Source of the DNA: an uncultured Spirochaetota bacterium
GTDB lineage: Bacteria > Spirochaetota > Spirochaetia > SZUA-6 > CAVTHK01
Direction: 5' to 3'
Assembly (NCBI GenBank): GCA_963734495.1
Contig: CAVTHK010000013.1
Location: 288,001-352,000 of the forward strand
Length of the DNA: 64,000 nucleotides
The translations under genes were made by a program, and so were the position numbers. The notes under the pieces were generated by a model that worked only from the letters and a program-made list of their open reading frames with translations, was not told the DNA's origin and made no database searches. Positions 1 through 44,197 of the stretch are shown here, piece by piece. How positions within the stretch are numbered: the stretch's first letter is position 1; each line of letters opens with the position of its first letter.

Positions 1-520
1 TCGCGACGGTCATGCCGGGCGTGAGGCGCGCGCGGTGCGCCGCCTGGATGCCGACGCTGATCGGCTCGACGAACGCCGCCTGCTCGTCGCTCACGGAGTC
101 GGGGACGAGGTGCGCGAAGTCCGAGACGATCGCGACCTGCTCGGCGAACGTGCCGTTGATGGGCGGAGCGGAGAGGAATGTGACATCAGGGCAGAGGTTG
201 TAGCGGCCCTTCTTGCACCACTCGCAGCGGCGGCACGGGATGCCGGGCTCGACGGCGACGCGAGCGCCTGGGCGCGGCCCCCGGCCATCGGCCGCGGCCC
301 GCACGACGACACCGCACGCTTCGTGGCCGGGAACGTAGGGCTTGGTGACGCGGAACGGGCCGAGCTTGCCGCTCTCGTAGAAGTGGATGTCGGAGCCGCA
401 GAGGCCGTTCATCCTGATGCGGATCAGGACCTCGTCGGGCGCGGGCTCGGGCGCCGGTATCTTCTCGTAGCGCAGGTCGTGCGCTTTGTGCAGCACCGCG
501 GCTTGCATCTCGACAGCCAT
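1..520 (-). CDS. Zn-dependent polyol (sorbitol/xylitol-type) dehydrogenase, 3' end outside window
   Basis: Read manually: MAVEMQAAVLHKAHDLRYE..GLCGSDIH..GHE..CRRCEWCKKGRYNLC (MDR catalytic and structural Zn motifs); GGAGGTG RBS upstream of ATG 520. Confidence 0.85.
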   Translation of the reverse strand, partial: MAVEMQAAVLHKAHDLRYEKIPAPEPAPDEVLIRIRMNGLCGSDIHFYESGKLGPFRVTKPYVPGHEACGVVVRAAADGRGPRPGARVAVEPGIPCRRCEWCKKGRYNLCPDVTFLSAPPINGTFAEQVAIVSDFAHLVPDSVSDEQAAFVEPISVGIQAAHRARLTPGMTVA

Positions 521-589
521 CGCTCACCTCCGGCTGCGATCATAGGCGCCCGCTGCTGGAGAGCGCAAGCCCGGCAGTTGCCTTCAATT

Positions 590-619
590 TTGACCTTCCT
601 GCTTCTTCTGTGTTATAAC
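590..619 (+). promoter_or_regulatory. sigma70-type promoter of the MFS gene (near-leaderless)
   Basis: TTGACC 590-595, TG-n-TATAAC 611-619, GTG start 8 nt later with no RBS. Confidence 0.55.
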
Positions 620-627
620 GAATTCCC

Positions 628-1860
628 GTGCCTCCCTGGAAACGAAACCTCTACGCGGTCTGGTTGTGTCAAGTCCTTTCGATGATGGGATTTGGGTTCG
701 TCCTGCCGTTTCTCCCGTTCTACATTCAGACGCTCGGGGTCACGGAGCCGGCCGCGCTGCGGGGGTGGACGGGAGCGATCTCGGGCGCGCCCGGAATTCT
801 GATGGGCCTCGTCGCCCCGGTGTGGGGCACCCTCGCGGATAAGTACGGCCGACGCGTGATGCTGCTGCGCGCGATGGGCGCGGGAGCCATCGGCATGGTG
901 GCCATGGCGTTCGCGCCGAACGTGGAGATGGTGTTCGTGCTGCGGCTGGCGCAGGGGCTGTTCGCCGGCACGATCGCCGCCGCGAGCACGCTGGTCGCGG
1001 CGGGGACGCCGCGCGAGAAGATCTCGTACGCGATGGGCTTTATCGCCTCGGCGGCGTTTATCGGCAACGCCCTCGGGCCGTCGATCGGGGGAGTCTGCGC
1101 CGAGTGGCTCGGCTACAGGCCCACGTTCTTCATCGGCGCGGCCATCACGGGCGTGGGATTCCTGCTGGTCCTCAGGTTCGTCGAAGAGGTGCGCGAGGAC
1201 AGGGAGGAAAACGGCGGGTCCGACGAGGGCATCCCGTTCAACGTGCGGCTCACGTTCCGTATGCCGTTCCTGCCGATGTTTATCGCGTTCTTCGTGCTGA
1301 GGCTCGCGCGGAACCTCCCCGGGCCGTTCACCTCGCTGTACATCCAGGAGCTGCGCGGAACGATCCAGGGCTCGTCCGCCCTCACCGGCGCGCTCTCGGC
1401 GGTGATCGGTGTCCTCACGGCGCTTTCGGGGATGCTGCTCACGCGGCTCGGCGACCGGCACGACAAGCTGCGGCTGCTGACCGTCTTTATGGCGCTGAGC
1501 GCCGCGACGGCGCTGCCGATCTTCTTCGCGCCCGGCTCGTGGGGGTTCGTCGTCTTCTACATTCTCTCTGTCGTCTTCCTCGGCCCGACCAACCCGCTGC
1601 TCGAGTCCACGATGACCGTGCTCACCTCGCGGTCGACGCGGGGCGTGCTCTTCGGCGTCGAGGCGTTCATGGGGAACATGGCCATGGCGCTGGCGCCGTT
1701 CCTCGGCAGCGCGGTGACCATCGCGTTCACGCTCAAGCACATCTTCCTGGTATACGCCATCGCCCTCGTCGGCGCGTTCGCGGTGGCGACGTTCTGCAGG
1801 CGCGCCGCGGCGCGGGCGCCTGCCTACGGCGAGGTCGCCGTCTCGAGCGCCGCGAGGTAG
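628..1860 (+). CDS. MFS transporter, DHA1/MdtG-like
   Basis: 410 aa, about 12 hydrophobic segments, WKRNL N-terminus, motif A WGTLADKYGRR. Confidence 0.9.
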   Translation: MPPWKRNLYAVWLCQVLSMMGFGFVLPFLPFYIQTLGVTEPAALRGWTGAISGAPGILMGLVAPVWGTLADKYGRRVMLLRAMGAGAIGMVAMAFAPNVEMVFVLRLAQGLFAGTIAAASTLVAAGTPREKISYAMGFIASAAFIGNALGPSIGGVCAEWLGYRPTFFIGAAITGVGFLLVLRFVEEVREDREENGGSDEGIPFNVRLTFRMPFLPMFIAFFVLRLARNLPGPFTSLYIQELRGTIQGSSALTGALSAVIGVLTALSGMLLTRLGDRHDKLRLLTVFMALSAATALPIFFAPGSWGFVVFYILSVVFLGPTNPLLESTMTVLTSRSTRGVLFGVEAFMGNMAMALAPFLGSAVTIAFTLKHIFLVYAIALVGAFAVATFCRRAAARAPAYGEVAVSSAAR

Positions 1861-2094
1861 GAGAGCGCCTCCTCGCGCGAGGCGCCGCACATCTCGGGCA
1901 TCGGACGCAGGGCGACGCACACCGCCGGCCGCTCGGGCCTGCCGTAGAGCGCGCAGCGGTAGCCGGCGGTGAGGTGAATGCAGCGCACGCCCGCGGGCTT
2001 GCCGTCGCGGCATCCCGGGGATCGGCGAGGAGATCGAGAGCGCGATGCAGCAGGCGCCGCAGCCGGGCCTGCAGGGCGCGGGCCCCGCGCTCAT
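1824..2094 (-). CDS. YkgJ-like cysteine-cluster (CxxCC) protein, one frameshift near 2010
   Basis: CRPGCGACCIALSISSPIPGMP then, after removing one base, DGKPAGVRCIHL..CALYGRPERPAVC..EMCG..TAG 1824; span is 270+1 nt. Confidence 0.8.
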
Positions 2095-2121
2095 CGGCCG
2101 CTCACCCGGCTCACCCGCGGC

Positions 2122-2757
2122 TCACTTGCCCGAGGCGATCGCGACGGCCTCCCGCGCGACCTTGGTGATCTCGTCGAACTTGCCGCCCGAGATCTGCTCG
2201 GCCCTCGCGATCCAGGTCCCGCCGACGGCGTAGACGGCAGGCTCCTTGAGGTACGCGGCCAGGTTGGCCGGGGTCACGCCGCCGGTGGGGATGTACTTGA
2301 CGCCCACGTAGGGACCGGCCAGCGCCTGGACCATCTTGATGCCGCCCGAGACCTCGGCCGGGAAGAACTTGAGCACGGTCAGGCCCCTCTCGAGCGCGGC
2401 CTCGACGCCCATCGGGTTGTTGATGCCCGGGTAGATCGGGATCCGGTTCTTGACGCAGTAGTCGACGACCGTCGGGTTGAATCCCGGCGTCACGATGAAC
2501 CGCGCCCCCGCCTTGAGCGCCCGCTGCACCTGGTCGATCGTCAGCACCGTGCCCGCGCCGACCAGCACGTCCGGGAGCTTCGACGCGAGGGTCCGGATGG
2601 ACTCTTCAGCGGCGTCGGTCCGGAAGGTGATCTCCGCGATGGGGAGCCCGCCTTCGAGCAGCGCCTTGCCCAGAGGAAGCGCGTCGGCCGCCCGGTCCAG
2701 CTTGATCACCGGCACGATCTTGAGCTCGCGAATCCTGGCATTCAGTTTTTCGTCCAT
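2122..2757 (-). CDS. eda: KDPG/KHG aldolase
   Basis: EITFRT, GAGTV, LKFFPA and IPTGGV motifs; 211 aa. Confidence 0.93.
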   Translation of the reverse strand: MDEKLNARIRELKIVPVIKLDRAADALPLGKALLEGGLPIAEITFRTDAAEESIRTLASKLPDVLVGAGTVLTIDQVQRALKAGARFIVTPGFNPTVVDYCVKNRIPIYPGINNPMGVEAALERGLTVLKFFPAEVSGGIKMVQALAGPYVGVKYIPTGGVTPANLAAYLKEPAVYAVGGTWIARAEQISGGKFDEITKVAREAVAIASGK

Positions 2758-2848
2758 GCCCGGATCATGTCACGACGCGGCGCGGCTGTCGAGAGCGGGT
2801 GTCGAGAGCGGGCGGGCGGTGTGCGAACGGGCCGACCCGCCGGCGGGC

Positions 2849-3448
2849 TCAGCCGTCCTCGGGGCGCCGTAGAGCCAGCACCGCCGCGCCCGCGGCGTCC
2901 AGGTCCGCAGCGAATGCGATCAGGCCGTCGCGGTGGCCGCCCATCACCACCACGCCCGCGGCCCGCGCCCCGCGGACCGCTTCCGCAACGGCCTCCGCGA
3001 TCTCGGGAGTTCCATACTCCGCTTCGCGGCGCGTGGTCGGAAGCCTGCCCGCGAAGCGCTCCCACATCCGCGCCGAGTGCACGTGGATCACCGCGCCAAC
3101 CCATGGGAGGGTCTGGTAGACGGCGGCGTGGGTGAGCGATTCCGAAGACGCCCGCGTGAGGCCCCTGCACGCGAGCCAGTTCTCCCAGGGCCGCGCCTCG
3201 TCGACCAGCGCGTAGTGACGCGGCTCGAGGCTCTCGAGCGCGCCGGTAGCCGAGCCCGTGATGACGAACGCGTTCCCGCCGGCGCGGGCGGAGATGTTGC
3301 CGAAGCCGGTGCCGTCCTGCGTAGCGCCGACAAGGCCGAGGCGCCGCAGCTCGCTTCGCCAGCGTCCGAGAGCCGCCAGCAGCGCGGGCGCGATTTCGAG
3401 CGGCTCCTCGGTCCAGCGGCAGGCGAACTTCGTGTAGCCTTCGGACAT
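2849..3448 (-). CDS. Class II aldolase/adducin family protein
   Basis: GNISAR, ITGS, ASSESLTHAAVY, VIHVHS, GHRDGL metal-binding His pattern; GAGG RBS before ATG 3448. Confidence 0.85.
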   Translation of the reverse strand: MSEGYTKFACRWTEEPLEIAPALLAALGRWRSELRRLGLVGATQDGTGFGNISARAGGNAFVITGSATGALESLEPRHYALVDEARPWENWLACRGLTRASSESLTHAAVYQTLPWVGAVIHVHSARMWERFAGRLPTTRREAEYGTPEIAEAVAEAVRGARAAGVVVMGGHRDGLIAFAADLDAAGAAVLALRRPEDG

Positions 3449-3546
3449 CGCGACATCCTCGCTGCAGGGCGCGGCGGGCGCTGCGGCTGCGGCTGCGGCG
3501 ACCGCGGGGGGCGCGGGCGCGGCGGGCGCTGCGGGCGCCACTGGCG

Positions 3547-4584
3547 CTACGGGGCGAGCGCGCGCAGAATCTCGCCGGGCCTGAAGATGCCCCTCTCCGT
3601 GATGATGCCTGAGACCAGCCGCCCGGGGGTGACGTCGAAGGCCGGGTTCCTCACGGGGCTCGCCTTCGGGGCGATCCGGACGGTGGCCGGCCGCCCGCTC
3701 GCGACGTCCTCGCCCGCGACGCACGACACCTCGTCCGCCGCGCGCTCCTCGATCGGGATCTCGCGGCCGGTCGGGCAGCGGGGATCGATCGTGGCCGCGG
3801 GCGCCGCCACGTAGAACGGGATGCCGTTCTCGCGCGCCACCACCGCGCTGGAGTAGGTGCCGATCTTGTTGGCGACGTCGCCGTTGGCCGCGATGCGGTC
3901 CGCGCCCACGATCACGAGGTCGATCTCTCCGCGAGCCATGAACCAGCCGCTCGCGTTGTCCGCGATCACGGCGTGGGCGATCCCTTCCTCGCCGAGCTCG
4001 AACGCGGTGAGCCGGCTGCCCTGGCAGCGCGGCCGCGTTTCGTCGACGAACACGAAGAAGCGCACGCCCCGCCGGTGGGCCTTGTACATCGGGGCGGTGG
4101 CGGTGCCCCAGTCGACGGTCGCCAGCCATCCCGCGTTGCAGTGCGTGTTGACCCGCGCCCCTTCGCGTATCAGGTGCTCTCCGAGCTCCCCGATGGCGGC
4201 GCACGCCTGCTCGTATTCGTCGGCGACCGCCCGCGCCTCCTCGAGCACGGAGCGGCCCGCGCCGGCGGCTCCGAGCGTCCTGTCGATCGCCGCGAACAGG
4301 TCCTGCGCCGTGGGCCTCGTCGCCCGCAGCTCCGCGGCGGCGGCCGGGAGGTCCGCGCGCTGCCGCTCGGCGAGCGCCATGCCAAAGGCGGCCGCCGCGC
4401 CGATGGCGGGAGCCCCGCGCACGACCATGGTTCGGATCGCCGCCGCCACTTCCCGGTAGTCGCGGTATCGCGCGATCTCCAGCCTGTGCGGAAGCGCGGT
4501 CTGATCGATCAGGCAGAGCTCGCCCGCCCCGCGCGAGGACTCCTCGAACCAAACCGTCCTGTAGGGGCGTCCGCCGATACGCAT
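3547..4584 (-). CDS. mtnA: S-methyl-5-thioribose-1-phosphate isomerase
   Basis: VRGAPAIG, RPTA, THCNAG, ETRP, GADRIAANGDVANKIGTY, NPAFDVTP. Confidence 0.95.
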   Translation of the reverse strand: MRIGGRPYRTVWFEESSRGAGELCLIDQTALPHRLEIARYRDYREVAAAIRTMVVRGAPAIGAAAAFGMALAERQRADLPAAAAELRATRPTAQDLFAAIDRTLGAAGAGRSVLEEARAVADEYEQACAAIGELGEHLIREGARVNTHCNAGWLATVDWGTATAPMYKAHRRGVRFFVFVDETRPRCQGSRLTAFELGEEGIAHAVIADNASGWFMARGEIDLVIVGADRIAANGDVANKIGTYSSAVVARENGIPFYVAAPAATIDPRCPTGREIPIEERAADEVSCVAGEDVASGRPATVRIAPKASPVRNPAFDVTPGRLVSGIITERGIFRPGEILRALAP

Positions 4585-4590
4585 CGTTCG

Positions 4591-5340
4591 TCAGCTCACG
4601 CGCGGGATGAGCGCTACGAGGATGCGCCGAACCTTCTCCGCGTTGCGATGGAAGGTCTCGAGCACCGCTTCCCACGTGACCGGCTCCTCGTCCTCCTTCC
4701 AGCAATCGTAGTCGGTGGACATGGCGATCGTCGCGTACGGAAGGCCGATCTCGTTGGCGAGGATGCACTCGGGCGCGATGGACATGTTGATGACGTCGGC
4801 GCCCCAGGCGCGGAACATCCGCGACTCGGCGCGGGTCGAGAAGCGTGGCCCCTCGATCGTGACCACCGTCGCGCGCTCGTGCACCGCCACGCCGAGGTCC
4901 CGGCACGTCGCGATGATCAGCGCGCGCAACCCGGCCGAGAACGGGTCGGCCATCGGCGTGTGGTTCATGGCGCCCGGCTCGAATCGCTCGAAAAAGCTGA
5001 CCTTCCTATGCCTCGTGAAGTCGATGAACTGGTCGAGGACCGCCAGGTCTCCCCGGCGGATCTCCTCGCGCAGAGAGCCGACCGCCGTCGTGCTCACGAC
5101 GTGCGTGCACCCCGCCTGCTTCAGCGCGAACACGTTCGCCCTGTTGTTCACCTGCGTCGGCGGGATCGTGTGGTCGCGGCCGTGGCGGGCGAGCAGGTAG
5201 ACCGCGCGTCCCTCGATCCGGCCCTCGCGAAGCGGCGAGGAGGGACTCCCCCAGGGAGTGTCGATCTCGACGTCGCGGCTCTCCTTGAGGATCGCCGGAT
5301 CTTCCAGCCCGCTTCCGCCGATGATGCCGATGACCGCCAT
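4591..5340 (-). CDS. mtnP: S-methyl-5'-thioadenosine phosphorylase
   Basis: IGIIGGSG, RHG..H, EGPRFSTRAES, INMS, TDYDCW. Confidence 0.95.
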   Translation of the reverse strand: MAVIGIIGGSGLEDPAILKESRDVEIDTPWGSPSSPLREGRIEGRAVYLLARHGRDHTIPPTQVNNRANVFALKQAGCTHVVSTTAVGSLREEIRRGDLAVLDQFIDFTRHRKVSFFERFEPGAMNHTPMADPFSAGLRALIIATCRDLGVAVHERATVVTIEGPRFSTRAESRMFRAWGADVINMSIAPECILANEIGLPYATIAMSTDYDCWKEDEEPVTWEAVLETFHRNAEKVRRILVALIPRVS

Positions 5341-10901: not shown

Positions 10902-10981
10902 GCGACCACCGTCCGGTGAACATACTCAACGGGTCTACGGGTGGCAAACCGGACGTTCGGGGAGGAGCGCCGCGCGCCGCG

Positions 10982-12976
10982 TCAGCTGCTGCGGCTCCTG
11001 ACCGCGGCCGCGATGATCTCGCTGAAGCGGCGGAGATCGAGCGGTTTCTCGAGCGCGGCAAAGGATCCTTCGCGCTCCAGGTCGCGGAAGCTGTCGTCCG
11101 CAGTGAAGCCGCTGACGCACACGACCTTGGCCTGCGGGTCGATCTCCCGCAGCGCCGCGAGGCATTTGCGGCCGCCCATCCTCGGCATCACCATGTCGAG
11201 AACGACGGCGACGATCTCCGGGTGACGCTCTCGGAACGCCTCGATGGCCTCGAGCCCGTTGGCGGCGGTCACCGTGCGGTAGCCGCACCGGCCGAGGAAG
11301 CGCGTGATCATGGAGAGGACCTGGGGCTCGTCGTCGACGACCAGGACCGTGCCGGAGCCGCGCACGAAGCCGTCCGGCTGCTCGCCGGCCTCTTCCGCGG
11401 CCGCCTGCTCCAGCGCGGGAAAATACAGCTCGAACGTGGCGCCCTGCCCGGGCGCGCTGGTGACCTCGAGGAACCCGTCGTGGTGGCGCACGATCCCGTA
11501 CACGAGCGCGAGCCCGAGGCCCGTGCCGCCCGAGTTCTCCTTTGTCGTGAAGAACGGCTCGAAGATCCGGTCGCGGACCTCGTTCGTCATGCCGATCCCG
11601 TTGTCGGCGACGCGCAGGCAGACGTAGTGGCCGGCCTGGGCGTTGACGAAGCGCGACGCCTCGGCGCGCGACAAGGTCACCCGCCGCGTCGCGATGGCGA
11701 TCACGCCGCCCTCTTCGCCGCGCGCCAGGATGGCGTCACGCGCGTTCAGGCACAGGTTGACGAGCAGCTGGCTCACCTGTGACGCGTCCGCCGCGATGGA
11801 CCAGAGGTCCTCCTGCAGGTCCTGGCGGATGATGATCTCGCGCGGGAAGGTCCTGAGGAGCATCCGTTCCGTCTCGTGCACGACGCCGTTCAGGTTCAGC
11901 GGCACGCGCCGGGCGCTCACCTGCCTGCTGAAAAAGCGGAGCTGATCCGTCAGGTCCTTGGCCCGATCGGTCGCCGCCTTGATCTGGCGGAAGTCCTCGT
12001 AGTGCTCGCTGTCTTCGGGCACGTCGAGCAGCAGCAGCTGCGCGTAGCCGCCGATCGCGGCGAGAAGGTTGTTGAAGTCGTGGACGATCCCGCCCGCGAG
12101 CTGCCCGAGCGCATCCATCTTCTGGGCCTGGCGGATCTGGGTCTCCATCCGCTTGCGCTCGGTGACGTCCGCGAACGAGGCCATCAGGCCGACCGGCCTT
12201 CCCCTGTCGTCGAGGATCAGGGACGAGACCGCCTCCGCGTCGAACTCGTCGCCGCTCCTGCGGCGGACCACCAGCTCGCCCTGAAAGAGCCGCGCGGCGG
12301 GGTCCCTCAGGTCGAGGTTGCGGTACTGCCCCACGAGATCGCCGATGACCGTGCCGACCACCTCGCCGGCGCGGGTGAATCCCCAGAGCGCCACGAATGC
12401 AGGGTTGGCGTACGTGACCCTCCCGTCCATGTCCGTGAGCAGGATCCCGTGGAGGGAGGTGTCGATGGCATGGTTCTTGATCAGGAGCTCACGGCTCTGC
12501 TGCGTGAGCGCGGCCGAGAGGGCGCGGCGGATCTCCTCCTGGTTCTGCAGCGTGCGCTCGAGGAGCTCGTCGACGTAGCCGGCGAACGCCTCGTGGAAAT
12601 AGCCGTCGACCACGTCGAGGATGCGCGAGGCAGCCACCCCGGCGGCTTCGAGCACCAGCGCCCGCAGCGCGGCGCCCGTCGCCTGCAGCGGGCGCACGCC
12701 GACGCCTTCGCGTGCCAGCGCCCGGCCGCTCTCTCTGGCCGCGGCGGCGTCGAAGTCCGTCAGGTACTTCAGCAGCGCCGTGACCGCCGCGTCCGCGATC
12801 GGCTCGAAGCGGCGCGGATGCAGCTGGTAGCGGTTCTCGAAGGCCAGCTCGCGCAGCAGGCGCGTCACGGATTCGCGCAGGCGCGGCTCGAGGCTCGGCC
12901 GCGCGGCGGCGAGCCGCCGCAGCTGCAGCCACTCTTCGTCGGTAAGCCCGCCGGAAAGGTGCGGAGTTTCGCTCGT
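10982..12976 (-). CDS. Hybrid sensor histidine kinase: helical N-domain, PAS, HisKA, HATPase, REC; apparent ACG start
   Basis: YANPAF (PAS), AGGIVHDFNN, NARDA, GTGLGL, VLDMVMP; AGGAG at 12989-12985 lies 8 nt before in-frame ACG at 12976. Confidence 0.85.
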   Translation of the reverse strand, partial: TSETPHLSGGLTDEEWLQLRRLAAARPSLEPRLRESVTRLLRELAFENRYQLHPRRFEPIADAAVTALLKYLTDFDAAAARESGRALAREGVGVRPLQATGAALRALVLEAAGVAASRILDVVDGYFHEAFAGYVDELLERTLQNQEEIRRALSAALTQQSRELLIKNHAIDTSLHGILLTDMDGRVTYANPAFVALWGFTRAGEVVGTVIGDLVGQYRNLDLRDPAARLFQGELVVRRRSGDEFDAEAVSSLILDDRGRPVGLMASFADVTERKRMETQIRQAQKMDALGQLAGGIVHDFNNLLAAIGGYAQLLLLDVPEDSEHYEDFRQIKAATDRAKDLTDQLRFFSRQVSARRVPLNLNGVVHETERMLLRTFPREIIIRQDLQEDLWSIAADASQVSQLLVNLCLNARDAILARGEEGGVIAIATRRVTLSRAEASRFVNAQAGHYVCLRVADNGIGMTNEVRDRIFEPFFTTKENSGGTGLGLALVYGIVRHHDGFLEVTSAPGQGATFELYFPALEQAAAEEAGEQPDGFVRGSGTVLVVDDEPQVLSMITRFLGRCGYRTVTAANGLEAIEAFRERHPEIVAVVLDMVMPRMGGRKCLAALREIDPQAKVVCVSGFTADDSFRDLEREGSFAALEKPLDLRRFSEIIAAAVRSRSS

Positions 12977-12987
12977 AGCTGCCGCTC

Positions 12988-13788
12988 CTACTTCCGCAGG
13001 ATCACGCCGTAGAAACCGCGCCCGCCCCACTCCCGCGTCTGAAGCGCCTGAACCCGGGGGTCCATCCCGAGCCACGTCTCCAGGGGCAGCACGCCCGGGG
13101 CGACTGTCTTCCACGGAGCTGCCAGACGGAGCAGCGTCTCGCTCGTGCGGATGGTGATCGGCTGCCCGATCTTCTCGTAGATGGCGAACAGCGGTTTGAG
13201 CTTTTCGTTGGGCGTTGCGGCGTCTGCGTCGCTGAGAAAGAGCACCGACCCGGGTGCGACCCAGTCGTAGAGGACGCGGAGGGCGTGGCCGAGTTGCTCG
13301 TCGGAGAGGAAATAGGCGATGCCGTTGAGCCCCACGGCCAGGCGGCGCTCGTTGCCGAACAGCTCCGCCGCCGCGTCGGACTTCAGGATGACCTCGGGGG
13401 TCGCGGCGTCGCACTGAACGTAGCGGGCGTTCGGGTTGCCGCTGAGGATCGCCCTGGCGTACTCGACCGTCACCGGATCGATGTCGGAATAGAGCACCCG
13501 GGTGCCCGGGGGCGTCACTTCGTGGATATGGTCCAGCGTCGGCAGGCCCGAGGCAAAATCGAGGAACCGGGTGTGGCCTTCGGCCGCGAGCCTCCGGGTC
13601 GCCTCGCCGAGGAACCACCGGATGAGCTTGAGCACCTGCGGGAGGAACGGTGCCACCTGCACGATCTGCGTGGTCGCCTGGCGATCGATCTCGAAGTTGT
13701 GCGTGCCGCCGAGCAGGTAATCGTAGATCCGACCCGCGTTCGGACGACTGGAGTCGGCGATCGTCGTGAGATCGACGTTTTTTCCCAC
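12988..13788 (-). CDS. SAM-dependent methyltransferase, Methyltransf_19 (actinobacterial-type) family
   Basis: PNAGRIYDYLLGGTHNFEIDR, FLDFASGLPT..HIHE, YSDIDPV, C-terminal YGVILRK. Confidence 0.88.
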   Translation of the reverse strand: MGKNVDLTTIADSSRPNAGRIYDYLLGGTHNFEIDRQATTQIVQVAPFLPQVLKLIRWFLGEATRRLAAEGHTRFLDFASGLPTLDHIHEVTPPGTRVLYSDIDPVTVEYARAILSGNPNARYVQCDAATPEVILKSDAAAELFGNERRLAVGLNGIAYFLSDEQLGHALRVLYDWVAPGSVLFLSDADAATPNEKLKPLFAIYEKIGQPITIRTSETLLRLAAPWKTVAPGVLPLETWLGMDPRVQALQTREWGGRGFYGVILRK

Positions 13789-14180: not shown

Positions 14181-14435
14181 ATGTCGAAAGCGCATCGAGG
14201 AAAGGGCATACTCGACAAGCCCAAGCGCGGCCGCGGCGCGTGTCCGGTCAGCAAGCAGACTGGCGTCAAGCTCCTCTACCAGGTAGAGCTCGACGGGAAA
14301 CAGGTGATGGTTTCCAAAGTGGGCAAGGCGATACTGGCCAAGGCGAAAAAGAGCGCCGCCGCCGCCCCCGCCGCCCCCAAGGAAGAAAAGCCCGCCGAAG
14401 CACAGGCAAGCACAGCAGGCGCCAGCGCGACGTAG
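14181..14435 (+). CDS. Small basic protein (ribosomal-protein-like, degenerate zinc ribbon)
   Basis: MSKAHRGKGILDKPKRGRGACPVSKQTGVKLLY..; GAGGT RBS; TTGACC-17-TACGGT promoter candidate at 14120. Confidence 0.8.
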   Translation: MSKAHRGKGILDKPKRGRGACPVSKQTGVKLLYQVELDGKQVMVSKVGKAILAKAKKSAAAAPAAPKEEKPAEAQASTAGASAT

Positions 14436-16053: not shown

Positions 16054-17088
16054 GTGCCTGAGCGCCCGTTCGGTGACGTCTACCAGGGATTTCTCGGCGA
16101 TCCGAGCCTGGTCCTGCTCGTGCTCTTCGGCATTCTCGCTCTGGTCGTCGGCGCGCTGGTGGTCGCCGTCGTCCAGAACCGCCGCATGCGCCAGGCCCTC
16201 GAGCTGCAGTCCTCGCAGGCAAAGGAGCGCGCTCTGGCAAAGCTCAAGCTCTCGGACGAAGAGCGCGCCCTCCTCGACAGGCTCGTGCGGATGGTCAACG
16301 ACCCCCCCGTCCGCGGGCACCTCGTGCTCACCAACCCGAACACTTTTAACCACTGCGCCGCGCGGTTGATCGCGGCGCGCGGAGCGGGCGAAGGCGAGCT
16401 GGCGGCGCTGAGGGTTCGCCTGGGGATCGCCCGCGGCAGCACGGAAAAGACGGTCACCTCGACCGCGATCCTCCCGGCCGGGCTGCGGCTGCTGGTCTCT
16501 CAGCGGGAGACCAAGAAGTTCTATGCGATCGTGCGCGAGTCCGCGCCCGGCGGCCTGATCGTGAGCATCGAGGACGCGGACGTGATCGCGCCCGGCCCCG
16601 GGACCGAGCTGCGCTGCTTTTTCAACGTCAAGAGCGGGACCTTTCAGTTCACCACGATCGTGAGGGGGGTCGACGGCCAGACGCTGCGGATCGCGCATTC
16701 GGAGAAGATCCTTCGCACTCAGCGCCGCAAGTACTACCGGGCGCGGACCAGCCTGCCGGCCCGGGTCGGCGTTGCCGGGTCCCAGGAGCAGCCGGTGGTG
16801 ACGCGGCTGGTCGACCTGAGCGGAGGCGGGGCGAGCCTCGAGAACTCCGGCATGCGCTTCAATTCGGGCGACGATGTGCAGATCCGGTTCGCGACGTTCG
16901 ACGGCATCGAGTTCCAGCTCGTCGCTGAAGTCAGGCGCCTCTCTCACGGAGGCCGAGTACTGCACGTGCTCTTCGGCCCGATGAGCGACACGGCGAGGGA
17001 CCGCCTGATCGCCTTCGTGCTGAGCCTCCGCAAGCGGGGCCTGGCGCCGCATTTCCTCCCTGCGGATCCCGGCCCCGGACGGGCCTGA
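16054..17088 (+). CDS. Membrane-anchored YcgR-like/PilZ c-di-GMP receptor
   Basis: N-terminal TM; QRRKYYR (RxxxR) and DLSGGG (DxSxxG) PilZ motifs; AGGGAGG RBS. Confidence 0.85.
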   Translation: MPERPFGDVYQGFLGDPSLVLLVLFGILALVVGALVVAVVQNRRMRQALELQSSQAKERALAKLKLSDEERALLDRLVRMVNDPPVRGHLVLTNPNTFNHCAARLIAARGAGEGELAALRVRLGIARGSTEKTVTSTAILPAGLRLLVSQRETKKFYAIVRESAPGGLIVSIEDADVIAPGPGTELRCFFNVKSGTFQFTTIVRGVDGQTLRIAHSEKILRTQRRKYYRARTSLPARVGVAGSQEQPVVTRLVDLSGGGASLENSGMRFNSGDDVQIRFATFDGIEFQLVAEVRRLSHGGRVLHVLFGPMSDTARDRLIAFVLSLRKRGLAPHFLPADPGPGRA

Positions 17089-17393: not shown

Positions 17394-18447
17394 ATGAAAC
17401 ACGCAGTTGTCTCGCGCATCGCGCCGAGGCTCGCGGCGGGGCTCGCCCTCATCGTCGCGGCGTCGCTGTCGGGATGCGCACGCTCGACCGCGGGCAGCGC
17501 CCAGGGGGCGGTCCGCATCGGCGTTTTCGTCCCGGGCTTCGTGCAGGGGAGCCCCACGTACGAGATGCTCGTGGCGGGCACCAGGAAGGCCGCGGCCGAG
17601 CGCCCCGACACGGCCGTGGACGTGGTCGAGGCCGGCTTCAACCAGGCGGAGTGGCAGGACAAGCTCACCGCCCTCGTGGCCACCGGCAAGTACAACCTGA
17701 TCGCGACCACGAACTCGGCGATGCCCGCGATCTGCGCCGAGGTCGCCAAGCGCTTCCCGAAGCAGAAGTTCGTCGTCATCGACGGCCGCCTGGTTCACCC
17801 GCAGATGTACACGGTGATCTTCAACCAGGTCGAGCAGGGATACCTGGTGGGCTACATGGCCGGCCTGGTCACCGACGAGCGACATGCCCGGCGCCAACCC
17901 TCAGAAGAAGGTCGGGATGATCGTGGCCCAGCAGTATCCCGCCATGGACCGGGCGATCCGGCCGGGGTTCGAGAAGGGCCTCAAGGACGTCGACCCCGCC
18001 ATCACCCTCGACTTCCGGGTGATCGGCAACTGGTACGACGCCGCCAAGGCGGGCGAGCTCGCCGACAGCATGTTCGACGCCGGCGTCGACGTCGTGCTCA
18101 CGATCGCCGGCGGCGCCAACCAGGGCGTGGTCAAGGCCGCCAGGGAGCGCGGCCGCTACGTGCTGTGGTTCGACTCCAACGGCTACGCCGTGGCTCCCGG
18201 GACCGTCGTCGGCTCGAGCGTGGTGGCCCACGACGAGGCCACTTACCGCGCGGTCAAGGCCTTTCTCGCGGGCAAGCTGGAGCTCGGCAAAGCCGTCACG
18301 CTGGGAGCCGCCGACGGCTTCGTGACCTTCGTGCAGGACGACCCGCTCTACACGCAGAACGTCCCGCAGGCCCTGCGCGAGCGCATGAAAGCTCAGGCCG
18401 AGAGGGTGCGCCGCAACGAGCTGGGGCTCGCGATGCCGGAGCTCTGA
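17394..18447 (+). CDS. rfuA: BMP-family riboflavin-binding lipoprotein (RfuA-like), frameshift near 17875
   Basis: Lipobox LSGC; GVFVPG..SPTYEML; second frame GNWYDAAKA..IAGGANQG; directly downstream of the FMN riboswitch. Confidence 0.82.
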
Positions 18448-19970
18448 TGTCGGCCGCCCCCTACCTCGCGATGCGGGGCATCACCAAGTGGTACCCTTCG
18501 AGCGGGGTCCTCGCGAACGACCGGATCGACTTCGACGTGCGCCCGGGCGAGATCCATGCGCTGGTGGGCGAGAACGGGGCGGGCAAATCGACGCTCGTGC
18601 GGATTCTCGACGGAGTCGTGGCGGCCGACGCCGGCTCGATCTCGATCGACGGCCGCCCCGTCCACATCCGCTCGCCCCGCGAAGCGATGCGCCACGGCAT
18701 CGGCATGGTGCACCAGCATTTCCGCCTGATCCCCTCGTTCAGCGTCGCGCAGAACGTCATGCTCGGGATCGAGCCTGCCCGCTTCCGCGCGTTCCTCGAC
18801 GAGTCCGAGCTCATCCTGCGGGTCGCGGACGCTGCGGCCCGCTGGGGCCTGCCGGTCGAACCCGGCGCCGAGGTCTCCGACCTCGACGTCGGCGCGATGC
18901 AGCAGGTCGAGCTGCTCAAGCTGCTCTACCGCGACGCGCGCATCCTGGTGCTCGACGAGCCGACCGCGGTGCTGACCGATCAGCAGGCGGAGGCCCTGCT
19001 GCGCACCCTGCGCTCGCTCGCCGCCGAAGGCCGGACGGTCGTCATCGTGACCCACAGCATCGAGGAGGTGCTCGACGTGGCCGACCGCGTCACCGTGCTG
19101 CGGCGCGGCAGGGTCGTCGCCACCCGCGACGCCGGGGCCTGCACGGCCGCCGAGCTGGCTGCGCTGATGGTCGGCGCGGACCTGCCGCCGGAGCAGCCCC
19201 GGTCGCCCGCGACGGCCGGAGAGCCGGTGCTGCGGCTCGAGCGGCTTTCGGTGCGCGGCCCGTTCGGCGCGGGTCTCGACGCCCTGGACCTCACGGTGCG
19301 CGAGGGGGAGATCATCGGCGCGACCGCCCTCGCGGGCAACGGCCTGCGGGAGCTCGAGGACGCGGTCTCGGGGCTCCGGCCGCCGGCCGCCGGCCGCATC
19401 GTGTACCGCGGGCGGCCGCTGGCGGCCGATGCCCGCCACGCCTTCCGCAGGCAGGAGCTGGCCTACGTGCCCTCGCAGCGCTTCGAACGAGGGGCGAGCC
19501 TCTCGTCGACGGTCGAGGAGAACCTCATCCTCGGATGGCCGGGCGCGTTCGCGCGCGGCGGTCTGTACCACCGCAGCGCGGCGCGCAGGCACGCGCTCGG
19601 GCTGATGGAGGAGTTCGGCATCGAAGGGACGCCGGACCTGCCGATGGAGATGCTCTCGGGCGGCAACCGCCAGAAGGTGATCCTCGCGCGGGAGCTCGGC
19701 TCCGGCAAGGACTTCGTGCTGTTCGCCGAGCCGACGTGGGGGGTCGACGTGGCCGCCGCGCGCTTCGTCCACCGCCGCATCCTGGCGCTGCGCGACCAGG
19801 GTTGTGCGGTCCTGCTGATCTCGAGCGACCTGCAGGAGATCCTGCAGCTCGCCGACCAGGTCGTCGTGCTGCGCGGCGGCCGCGCGGTGGCCCGGCTCGC
19901 GAACGGGCCGGGCCTCTCGCGCCGCACCCTCGGCGAATACATGCTCGGCCTCCGCGAGGACGCGGCATGA
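18447..19970 (+). CDS. rfuB: ABC transporter ATPase with two NBDs (RfuB-like)
   Basis: GENGAGKST, VHQHF, LDEPT, LSGGNRQK; TGATG coupling. Confidence 0.88.
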   Translation: MSAAPYLAMRGITKWYPSSGVLANDRIDFDVRPGEIHALVGENGAGKSTLVRILDGVVAADAGSISIDGRPVHIRSPREAMRHGIGMVHQHFRLIPSFSVAQNVMLGIEPARFRAFLDESELILRVADAAARWGLPVEPGAEVSDLDVGAMQQVELLKLLYRDARILVLDEPTAVLTDQQAEALLRTLRSLAAEGRTVVIVTHSIEEVLDVADRVTVLRRGRVVATRDAGACTAAELAALMVGADLPPEQPRSPATAGEPVLRLERLSVRGPFGAGLDALDLTVREGEIIGATALAGNGLRELEDAVSGLRPPAAGRIVYRGRPLAADARHAFRRQELAYVPSQRFERGASLSSTVEENLILGWPGAFARGGLYHRSAARRHALGLMEEFGIEGTPDLPMEMLSGGNRQKVILARELGSGKDFVLFAEPTWGVDVAAARFVHRRILALRDQGCAVLLISSDLQEILQLADQVVVLRGGRAVARLANGPGLSRRTLGEYMLGLREDAA

Positions 19971-40229: not shown

Positions 40230-41320
40230 CTACTGGAGCTTGCCGCGGCCCTGGATGTCCCAGATCACCTCGACCCTGCCGTTGCGCACGCCGTACAGAC
40301 GGTCGTGCAGGAACACCGTCGAGTCGCCGTAGCTCACGACGAAGTCGAAGGCGTCGCCCGGCTTGATCTTCGTGTCCGGGCGCTCGAGCGTGAGCGTCCC
40401 GTGCTCGGCCGAAGGCTTGTACGGCGCGGTCTCGGGGAGCCCGGCCGAGGCGAACGGCGATCTCGCCCACGCGGGCAGCGCCTTGAAGCCCGCGTCGAAG
40501 ATGACGCGCGTCGGCGTCGGGCGGCTCGTCACCATCGTCCGCACGAAGAGCGAAGGCTTCGTGCCCGCCCCGTAGGCGAGGTACGTCGCGTCGCAGAAGA
40601 TCGCGCCGCCCGCCTGCACCTCGGTGAGCACGCCGAGCCGCGGGCTGAGAAGGTAGTCGCCGCTTCCGCCGCCGCTCACGATGCTCACGGGGAGCCCCGC
40701 CTCGCGGCAGAGGCGCGCGCTTTCGCCTAACAGGCCGACGGCCTTCTCGACGGCCGCCTTCTTCTCGGCGCTTCCTTGATGCCGACGGTGTGGCCTTCCC
40801 AGCCCATCACGCCGCGGTAGCGCAGCCCTTTCGTCTCGCACAGGATGCGCGAGAGCTCGAGCGCGGGCGCGCCGGGGGCGACCCCCGCGCGGCCCATGCC
40901 GATGTCCACCTCGACGACCACGCCGATCTCGCTCCCCGCGTCGCGTGCGGCGGCGCCGAGCTCGCGCGCGTTCTCCGCGCCGTCGACCGCGACCTTTACG
41001 TCCGCGCGCCGGGCGAGCTGCGCGAGGCGCGGCGCCTTGAGCGGCCCGACGACCTGGTTCGCGATCAGGATGTCGCGGATGCCGCCCGCGACCATCACCT
41101 CCGCCTCGGCGAGCTTGGCGCACGTGACGCCGATCGCGCCGGCGGCGATCGCCTTGCGCGCTATGTCCGGAACCTTGATCCCCTTGGTGTGCGGCCGCCA
41201 GCTCACGCCCGCCTCGCGGAAGTGCGAGGCGAGCGCCTGGATGTTCGCCTCGAGCTGGTCGAGGTCCGTCCAGAGGAAGGGGGTGTCCACCGCGTTCTTC
41301 GTGAGTCCGATCTCGCTCAT
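40230..41320 (-). CDS. DSD1/D-threonine-aldolase-like PLP enzyme, frameshift near 40770
   Basis: DTP..D, WRPHTK, AKLAEAE, GMGRAG, GWEGH / SGGGSG, EVQAG, DAGFK, SAEHG. Confidence 0.85.
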
Positions 41321-41330
41321 GTCGTTCCTT

Positions 41331-44197
<2,867 letters not shown>

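Follow-up and report, generated by a model that had tools for sequence, protein, structure and literature searches.

Within a 64,000-nucleotide stretch of DNA from an uncultured Spirochaetota bacterium (contig CAVTHK010000013.1, positions 288,001 to 352,000; the whole stretch is hereafter the window) we find two neighbouring minus-strand genes that encode an S-adenosylmethionine (SAM)-dependent methyltransferase (MT) of the Methyltransf_19 family and a cytoplasmic hybrid histidine kinase. The kinase begins with a helical domain (the N-domain), and all 17 further loci found to encode a relative of this domain carry an orthologous MT gene directly upstream. We put at roughly 0.5 the probability that the MT-kinase pair is a dedicated input module in which the MT partners the N-domain directly, covalent methylation included. 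The features of the pair are listed below; kinase residues are numbered from the in-frame GTG at 13030, in a frame other than that of the MT.

12988..13788, minus strand: MT gene, Methyltransf_19 SAM-dependent methyltransferase, 266 aa; GTG start at 13788, TAG stop at 12990-12988
12985..12989, minus strand: AGGAG Shine-Dalgarno-like sequence, read from the sequence, overlapping the MT stop TAG
10982..13030, minus strand: gene for a cytoplasmic hybrid histidine kinase, 682 aa when read from GTG 13030; start uncertain, the database version running from GTG 12868
12476..12949, minus strand: N-terminal globin-like helical domain, residues ~28-185, its last helix continuing into the PAS N-cap
12809..12835, minus strand: signature motif NRYQLHPRR (residues 66-74), on the loop joining helices 44-61 and 72-92
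12143..12472, minus strand: PAS domain, residues 187-296 (PAS_9, E 1.5e-10; PAS, E 9.7e-07)
11924..12109, minus strand: HisKA dimerisation/phospho-acceptor domain, residues 308-369 (E 3.9e-09), with the H-box HDFNN and H317
11414..11788, minus strand: HATPase_c catalytic domain, residues 415-539 (E 3.9e-22)
11012..11347, minus strand: receiver (REC) domain, Response_reg, residues 562-673 (E 1.6e-18)
10919..10947, minus strand: promoter-like site in the stretch that separates the kinase stop from the ABC exporter gene downstream; a consensus match only (1 found in the consensus scan against 0.1 expected)

Linkage of the MT and the N-domain kinase across genomes

Genomes were scanned with the pattern NR[YF][TSQ]LHPRR[LF], which was derived from a 14-sequence subset of N-domains; the window's own genome was not among the matches. 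The scan matched 24 stretches, 17 of which encode an N-domain relative, and these 17 loci are labelled as Spirochaetota (14, two of them on one contig), Desulfobacteraceae (two) and an unclassified bacterium (one). An MT orthologue stands directly upstream, on the same strand, in 17/17 loci as judged by tblastn and hmmsearch. Because every related locus carries the same MT in this position, the adjacency is not a matter of chance. An earlier reading of the window, made from the sequence only, had joined the MT and the helical domain in one input module; that the two make up a conserved unit is borne out by the neighbourhood co-occurrence of the N-domain with Methyltransf_19 in these motif-retrieved PAS-kinase orthologues.

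The MT orthologues are 49-57% identical to the window MT in the 16 single-piece matches, the N-domains are 32-43% identical, and the rest of the kinase is 35-50% identical where complete. Locus GC content runs from 38% to 66%, with the window at ~69%. The MT stop and the kinase start overlap by 4 nt in 6/16 loci, the gap between them being 14-52 nt in 6/16 and 106-171 nt in 4/16. No common third gene was found among 50 flanking open reading frames (ORFs) from 16 loci. The most frequent neighbours are an NAD synthase and an unassigned ORF of ~600 aa, both in one spirochaete subgroup, REC-HD-GYP regulators (L002, L005) and aminotransferases (L004, L015); L003 has a homocysteine S-methyltransferase. 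None of the 17 loci contains counterparts of the genes that flank the pair in the window (ABC exporters, a permease, a PilZ protein and an 84-aa protein), apart from a flanking FGGY kinase that is matched in L005 only.

We then compared MT and kinase trees for 12 loci and the window, leaving out L006 (frameshifted MT), L010, L014 and L016 (truncated kinases) and L017 (disrupted kinase). Three supported groups are common to both trees, namely {L001,L008}, {L002,L005} and {L004,L011,L012,L013,L015}. Since the trees share these groups, the pair is inherited as a unit and the two genes co-diverge.

The response regulators of the REC-HD-GYP (HD_5) type lie just downstream of the kinase and convergent with it (L002:7033-8115; L005:7029-8072, minus strand), and are candidate phosphorelay targets at those two loci. 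The MT orthologue at L006:4154-4962 is spread over three reading frames, its match being split accordingly, and represents either a pseudogene or assembly frameshift errors. L011 and L017, ~6 kb apart and in opposite orientation on contig CAVUXE010000003.1, are two copies of the cassette. Their MTs agree fully in the predicted N- and C-termini, and in L017, the second copy, the kinase is fragmented over several frames.

Two cases suggest what the MT is linked to. In L009 a gap of 36 nt separates the MT gene (1047-1844) from a stand-alone N-domain gene of 160 aa (1881-2363), beyond which comes an N-domain kinase gene (2520-4523). An additional partial MT, 37.6% identical to the window MT, stands at the start of the same contig (tandem region 3-4523), and this arrangement suggests local duplication of module parts. 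In the predicted metagenomic protein P0021 the first 40 residues correspond to the C-terminus of the MT (40% identity, E 8e-10) and an N-domain follows, which suggests the same gene order in another organism. On account of the L009 stand-alone gene and P0021, the link of the MT is to the N-domain and not to the kinase core; the linkage itself covers PAS-kinase orthologues and the L009 stand-alone N-domain gene.

Distant Methyltransf_19 members on plasmids were compared by a tblastn search of the MT against 72,556 plasmid records. This matched 81 records, all at <60% identity; among the matches listed identities are 27-37% (28-37% for the actinobacterial and cyanobacterial members). Sixty-one of the records are from Streptomyces, most of the rest are from other Actinomycetota and two are from Nostoc. 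The sequence-only reading had placed this MT family beside PAS-GGDEF-EAL proteins, mainly in Actinobacteria; none of the 12 annotated plasmid contexts (11 Actinomycetota, one Nostoc) has a GGDEF, EAL or histidine kinase neighbour, and the claim finds no support in this plasmid sample. An N-domain hidden Markov model (HMM) found no N-domain in the six plasmid loci L018-L023. Small ORFs next to distant MTs (a Nostoc 82-aa protein and hypothetical proteins of Prauserella and Pseudonocardia) were considered and rejected as N-domains, with hhalign probabilities of <=0.3%. Beside the distant MT genes of L020, L028, L026 and L021 (Streptomyces, Nonomuraea, Thermobispora) stand XRE/HTH regulators with DUF397, or BTAD regulators, which suggests that the Methyltransf_19 family as a whole keeps company with regulators. 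By this plasmid-only comparison, the N-domain partnership appears specific to the MT clade described here: a gene for the globin-like domain always follows the MT in our loci (17/17), whereas it does not for the distant members (0/6 by HMM).

The methyltransferase

The window MT matches the Pfam family Methyltransf_19 (PF04672) with an E value of 1.1e-50 and 173 bits against a cut-off of 26. The match spans residues 11-253 and profile positions 8-257 of 268, and thus confirms the family assignment made by the sequence-only reading. A PDB sequence search returned the solved relatives 2qe6 (Tfu_2867; E 3.8e-30) and 3giw/3go4 (Streptomyces avermitilis; E 3.8e-22), with which the window MT shares full-length homology and the class I Rossmann fold family of Methyltransf_19/DUF574. 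No NCBIfam model names the MT in an NCBIfam scan, no membrane helix was found in it (top 19-residue Kyte-Doolittle mean 1.30) and the window holds no second copy of either the MT or the kinase gene.

An alignment of 16 MT orthologues has a mean column identity of 67%, with DFASGLPT.DHIH and YSD.DP invariant. The class I SAM-binding motifs DFASGLPT (77-84) and YSD.DP (100-105) line up with the same motifs of 2qe6 and 3giw, and the clade therefore keeps the SAM-binding motifs of Methyltransf_19. Within the family the window MT falls in a separate clade, with 49-57% identity inside it and with invariant residues of its own, HNF 30-32, RWF.GE 57-62, DHIH 86-89 and N155-G156, that differ from those of the solved actinobacterial members. 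Given these residues, the substrate of this clade may differ from that of the actinobacterial proteins. According to the table in PMC2954221, the crystal ligands are SAM in 2qe6 and S-adenosylhomocysteine (SAH) in 3go4. The ligand of 3giw is of uncertain identity and resembles phenylalanine, and in PMC2954221 and PMC2954220 the authors suggest a small-molecule N- or O-methyltransferase. None of the papers found gives a substrate for any Methyltransf_19 member.

The kinase and its junction with the MT gene

The HisKA, HATPase_c and receiver domains all score above the Pfam cut-offs, and H317 and D612 are invariant in an alignment with the database proteins P0001 and P0002, which identifies the protein as a hybrid kinase. 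No membrane helix was found in the kinase (top 19-residue Kyte-Doolittle mean 1.42). The architecture read earlier from the sequence, a cytoplasmic kinase of the order N-domain-PAS-HisKA-HATPase-REC with no transmembrane segment, is thus correct. An identity as CckA was rejected, as NCBIfam NF046020 and NF046026 give 348 and 319 bits against a cut-off of 1000; the name 'CckA' attached to P0002 by one source is a generic label.

The sequence-only reading also placed the MT stop over the kinase ribosome-binding site. The AGGAG at 12989-12985 does overlap the TAG, but no in-frame ATG, GTG or TTG follows it until GTG 12868, with no canonical start within 100 nt downstream, and so only the first half of the claim holds. 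GTG 12868 is the start of the database protein P0001 (628 aa). A start there would drop residues that are conserved in P0002 and that form the first two helices of the N-domain model. The first in-frame start codon further upstream, GTG 13030, lies within the MT gene by 43 nt; it would fit the alignment with P0002 (681 aa, 67% identical overall), which begins at about residue 15. A non-canonical start after the AGGAG is another candidate. Whichever start is true, the MT and kinase genes abut or overlap. The promoter-like site at 10919..10947 suggests that the pair is its own two-gene unit, and the MT and kinase genes are presumably co-transcribed.

The N-domain family

No Pfam family matches the first ~185 residues of the kinase at E <= 0.01. 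When kinase residues 1-160 were compared exhaustively with 1.84 billion representatives, phmmer returned 47 proteins at E <= 1e-3, P0002 alone lying at E <= 1e-10. A Pfam scan of the other 46 found kinase modules in 10, one false positive and 35 short proteins (118-234 aa) with no Pfam domain. The architecture PAS-HisKA-HATPase-REC follows the N-domain in P0012, P0034, P0036, P0038, P0039 and P0046; the remaining kinases are P0004 (PAS-HisKA_2-HATPase), P0042 (GAF-HisKA-HATPase), P0045 (PAS-HATPase) and P0017 (truncated PAS-HisKA). At least four of the short proteins, P0006, P0016, P0022 and P0041, probably represent gene fragments, as they extend into the PAS N-cap. P0029, a HEAT-repeat protein, and the designed armadillo proteins that a single N-domain sequence matched in the PDB were dismissed as alanine-/leucine-rich helical noise. 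The sequence-only reading had seen a portable input module here. The spread of the N-domain over HisKA, HisKA_2 (P0004) and GAF (P0042) kinases and over short proteins agrees with that idea, whereas a GGDEF or EAL output was not seen among them.

Alignments of 36 and 41 sequences give the family signature aFxNRYxLHPRR...G..lAxEGlG...eGy..rE..l..QE.lR.A, with N66, P72 and G109 invariant and R73, G102, A106, G151, L161, Q164, E165 and A170 at least 90% conserved. H71 is semi-conserved, being A, S or L in several members. The 41 members have no consistent Pfam match even at E <= 10, and none matches the globin, RsbR_N or RsbRD_N families at that threshold. The N-domain profile found nothing meaningful among PDB sequences and the N-domain had no match in the plasmid records; word-indexed searches with the N-domain region and profile, which are weak negatives, returned just the window's own protein and P0002. 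Judged by these searches, the N-domain is a family of its own with no Pfam model. In a protein atlas the stand-alone N-domain of L009 leads at 0.91 (173 shared features) to 72 clustered hypothetical proteins of ~156 aa, a group commonest in Chloroflexota, and to further unnamed clusters commonest in Chloroflexota and Actinomycetota, a lead towards a more widespread stand-alone form.

An AlphaFold model of the N-domain with the 36-sequence alignment has a pLDDT of 87.7 and a pTM of 0.79; the model from the single sequence is poor (pLDDT 52.8). The model has six helices (31-42, 44-61, 72-92, 95-108, 112-130 and 135-187). Its best Foldseek match in the PDB is the RsbR N-domain 2bnl (E 0.024, TMt 0.69, TMq 0.50), followed by myoglobins, flavohaemoglobins, cytoglobins and pXO1-118 (3pmd, TMt 0.65). 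The top matches are all of globin fold with probabilities of 0.93-1.00, at E values of just 0.02-0.3 and a TMq of ~0.5; no match in the PDB reaches E <= 1e-3. A language-model atlas gives leads, and leads only, at 0.79-0.85 to RsbU_N and RsbRD_N clusters. The model thus predicts a globin-like helical fold, so that the fold part of the earlier description as an all-helical globin/RsbRD_N-like domain is upheld while membership of RsbRD_N by sequence is not.

The equivalent of the F-helix (95-108) has no histidine, and the semi-conserved H71 sits in the loop before helix 72-92. The N-domain therefore lacks the proximal histidine of haem-binding globin-coupled sensors. Because helix 95-108 is without histidine and H71 is replaced in several members, we read the N-domain as a putative non-haem globin-like sensor or docking domain.

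Complex prediction and proposed mechanism

We predicted the complex of the MT, with a 16-row alignment, and the N-domain (residues 1-189), with a 41-row alignment. The score was 0.58 (runs 0.59, 0.57 and 0.58) against 0.00 for the best of three controls, which the method classes as 'weak support'; contacts agree by at least 90% between runs, and partner pLDDT is at least 76. In the benchmark 116 of the 157 solved complexes attain the mark, as do 2 of the 215 mismatched pairs, and scores of <=0.60 at the mark belong to just 18 of the 157 solved complexes and to both passing mismatches, counts that are only rough here as author-built alignments were used. The complex model called for by the sequence-only reading, run here for the MT and the N-domain, thus lends weak support to contact between the two. 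Taken with the genomic linkage, the prediction raises our estimate of direct contact between the MT and the N-domain to about even odds and no further.

In the mechanism that we propose, the MT and kinase genes would be co-transcribed as an input module for a cytoplasmic phosphorelay. The MT would dock on the non-haem globin-like domain at the N-terminus of the kinase and pass on a SAM-, SAH- or substrate-dependent state, by binding alone or by methyl transfer. The long C-terminal helix of the N-domain would then relay this state via the PAS domain to HisKA/HATPase and on to the fused receiver. The kind of signal and any transfer of a methyl group are speculative; we give binding with no covalent modification somewhat more weight than methylation of the N-domain, each at well below even odds.

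Alternative explanations

Several observations weigh against a direct partnership of the MT with the N-domain. The 17 loci are orthologues of one kinase type and were retrieved by a motif pattern, and the start codon of the kinase is uncertain. The complex prediction passes in a weak class that is 'more often wrong than right unless the guess was likely beforehand', and it provides no interface. A fusion of the MT with the N-domain or the kinase was not found by an MT profile search, which was word-indexed and crowded and hence a weak negative. No conserved demethylase or esterase was found nearby, among 50 flanking ORFs of the loci and 44 ORFs of the window. Finally, the phenylalanine-like ligand of 3giw was read by its authors (PMC2954221, PMC2954220) as a sign of a small-molecule methyltransferase.

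This last point is also the main argument for metabolic coupling with no stable complex, in which the MT would methylate a small molecule and the kinase would sense its substrate or product through the PAS or globin-like domain, the two genes being co-transcribed as parts of one pathway. The presence of pXO1-118 among the fold matches fits such a scheme. Non-haem globin-like sensors can hold small hydrophobic ligands, as pXO1-118 does. Genes of amino-acid and sulphur metabolism stand beside the pair in L003 (homocysteine S-methyltransferase) and in L004 and L015 (aminotransferases), and the window has methionine-salvage-like genes at 3547-5340, but such neighbours occur in just 3/16 loci and those of the window are 6 kb off. 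Furthermore, the frequent 4-nt overlaps, the N-domain gene that follows the MT in L009 and the weak pass of the complex prediction suit a protein partner better. We regard metabolic coupling as possible, at well below even odds.

Unlikely in our view is that the MT covalently methylates a residue of the N-domain, in the NRYxLHPRR loop or at the near-invariant Q164-E165 of the output helix, as a CheR-independent switch on kinase activity. It draws on the same linkage evidence as the direct partnership. The invariant polar N-domain residues of surface type, N66, R73, Q164 and E165, would suit a recognition or acceptor site, and the clade's own invariant MT residues DHIH 86-89 and N155-G156 differ from the solved actinobacterial members. 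The complex prediction, however, provides no acceptor residue or contact map, several N-domains have A, S or L in place of H71, and the flanking ORFs include no conserved demethylase. We also know of no Methyltransf_19 member that is a protein methyltransferase. Since neither a CheB-like esterase nor a conserved third gene accompanies the pair, a reversible methylation cycle of the CheR/CheB kind has no support. A likeness of Q164-E165 to the methylation sites of methyl-accepting chemotaxis proteins (MCPs) is no more than speculation, and the spacing does not fit.

Inherited synteny with no functional coupling, the MT and kinase acting independently, would agree with loci that are all orthologues from a limited set of lineages, mostly metagenome-assembled genomes of Spirochaetota, and with a link known from sequence and not from experiment, but it is highly improbable given that the pair is kept in 17/17 loci while the flanking genes vary, that GC content ranges from 38% to ~69%, that the same pair occurs in loci labelled Desulfobacteraceae, that the MT and kinase trees agree in supported groups and that start and stop codons overlap in 6/16 loci.

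Comparison with known systems

The direct partnership of the MT with the N-domain has several partial counterparts. The N-domain resembles that of RsbR (2bnl) and the sensor globins in fold, in N-terminal place and in signalling output through a long helix; it differs from them in having no Pfam or PDB sequence match and no conserved F-helix histidine, and its output is a PAS domain and a histidine kinase whereas that of RsbR is a STAS domain in the stressosome. Globin-coupled histidine kinases such as AfGcHK bind haem through a proximal histidine and sense O2. They too are cytoplasmic kinases with an N-terminal sensor of globin fold, but the kinase described here lacks that histidine, carries a PAS domain in addition and comes with an obligatory MT partner gene.

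In CheR-MCP methylation, too, the principle is one of tuning a kinase through a SAM-dependent MT that is encoded together with a receptor. The MT described here belongs to a family other than CheR, however, and the pair has no MCP signalling domain, CheB or CheA/CheW. A further analogy is with operons of the H-NOX/HnoK type, where a small soluble protein is likewise encoded directly upstream of a cytoplasmic kinase. In these, a small soluble ligand-binding protein acts on the kinase by contact. Here the partner is an MT of enzyme fold and not a haem protein, and the globin-like domain of the kinase is its presumed docking site. A kinase with a dedicated cytoplasmic accessory protein is thus a known theme, in which both the partner and the receiving domain are here from uncharacterised families. 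Our literature search covered few subscription journals, so it is no proof of absence; it found neither a functional study of Methyltransf_19/DUF574 nor a description of an MT-kinase pair of this type.

Surroundings of the pair in the window

About 6 kb downstream of the kinase, on the same strand and beyond two ABC exporter genes, stand genes of methionine-salvage type (3547-5340, minus strand) for an IF-2B-family protein (methylthioribose-1-phosphate isomerase-like) and a PNP_UDP_1 phosphorylase. A link to SAM metabolism is possible; this neighbourhood is not conserved in the other loci. Divergent from the MT gene is an 84-aa lysine-/alanine-rich protein with no Pfam match (14181-14435, plus strand), and 2.3 kb upstream of the MT, on the opposite strand, is a 344-aa protein with a C-terminal PilZ domain of the c-di-GMP receptor type (16054-17088, plus strand). 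A substrate-binding protein of Bmp/PnrA type appears split between frames near 17880 (17394-19970 and 17884-18447, both plus strand); the long ORF 17394-19970 continues into an ABC ATPase and is probably a frameshift or a fused ORF call. A pyridoxal phosphate (PLP) enzyme of Cys/Met metabolism (40727-42903, minus strand) is likewise split into an N-terminal part (42016-42903) and a C-terminal part (40727-41842), the latter joined in one ORF to an N-domain of alanine-racemase type.

Significance

Three crystal structures are available for Methyltransf_19/DUF574, a large family to which no function has been assigned, and the N-domain family has no Pfam model. Their strict and often translationally coupled pairing gives both families one hypothesis, that a cytoplasmic phosphorelay receives its input through the MT. 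Should the two proteins make contact, or a methyl group be transferred, the pair would represent a new, possibly covalent, form of accessory-protein control in two-component signalling, and would offer a handle on the many MT-family paralogues beside regulators in Actinobacteria. Of wider consequence, but doubtful, is a reading in which the N-domain is a new receptor domain of non-haem globin-like type and the MT serves it as a protein methyltransferase or as a sensor of the SAM state. Were this true, these anaerobes would gate a phosphorelay by methylation of a sensor domain or by cellular methylation potential. A histidine kinase would then be under methylation-based control in a scheme other than CheR/MCP chemotaxis, and the orphan Methyltransf_19 family would gain a first function.

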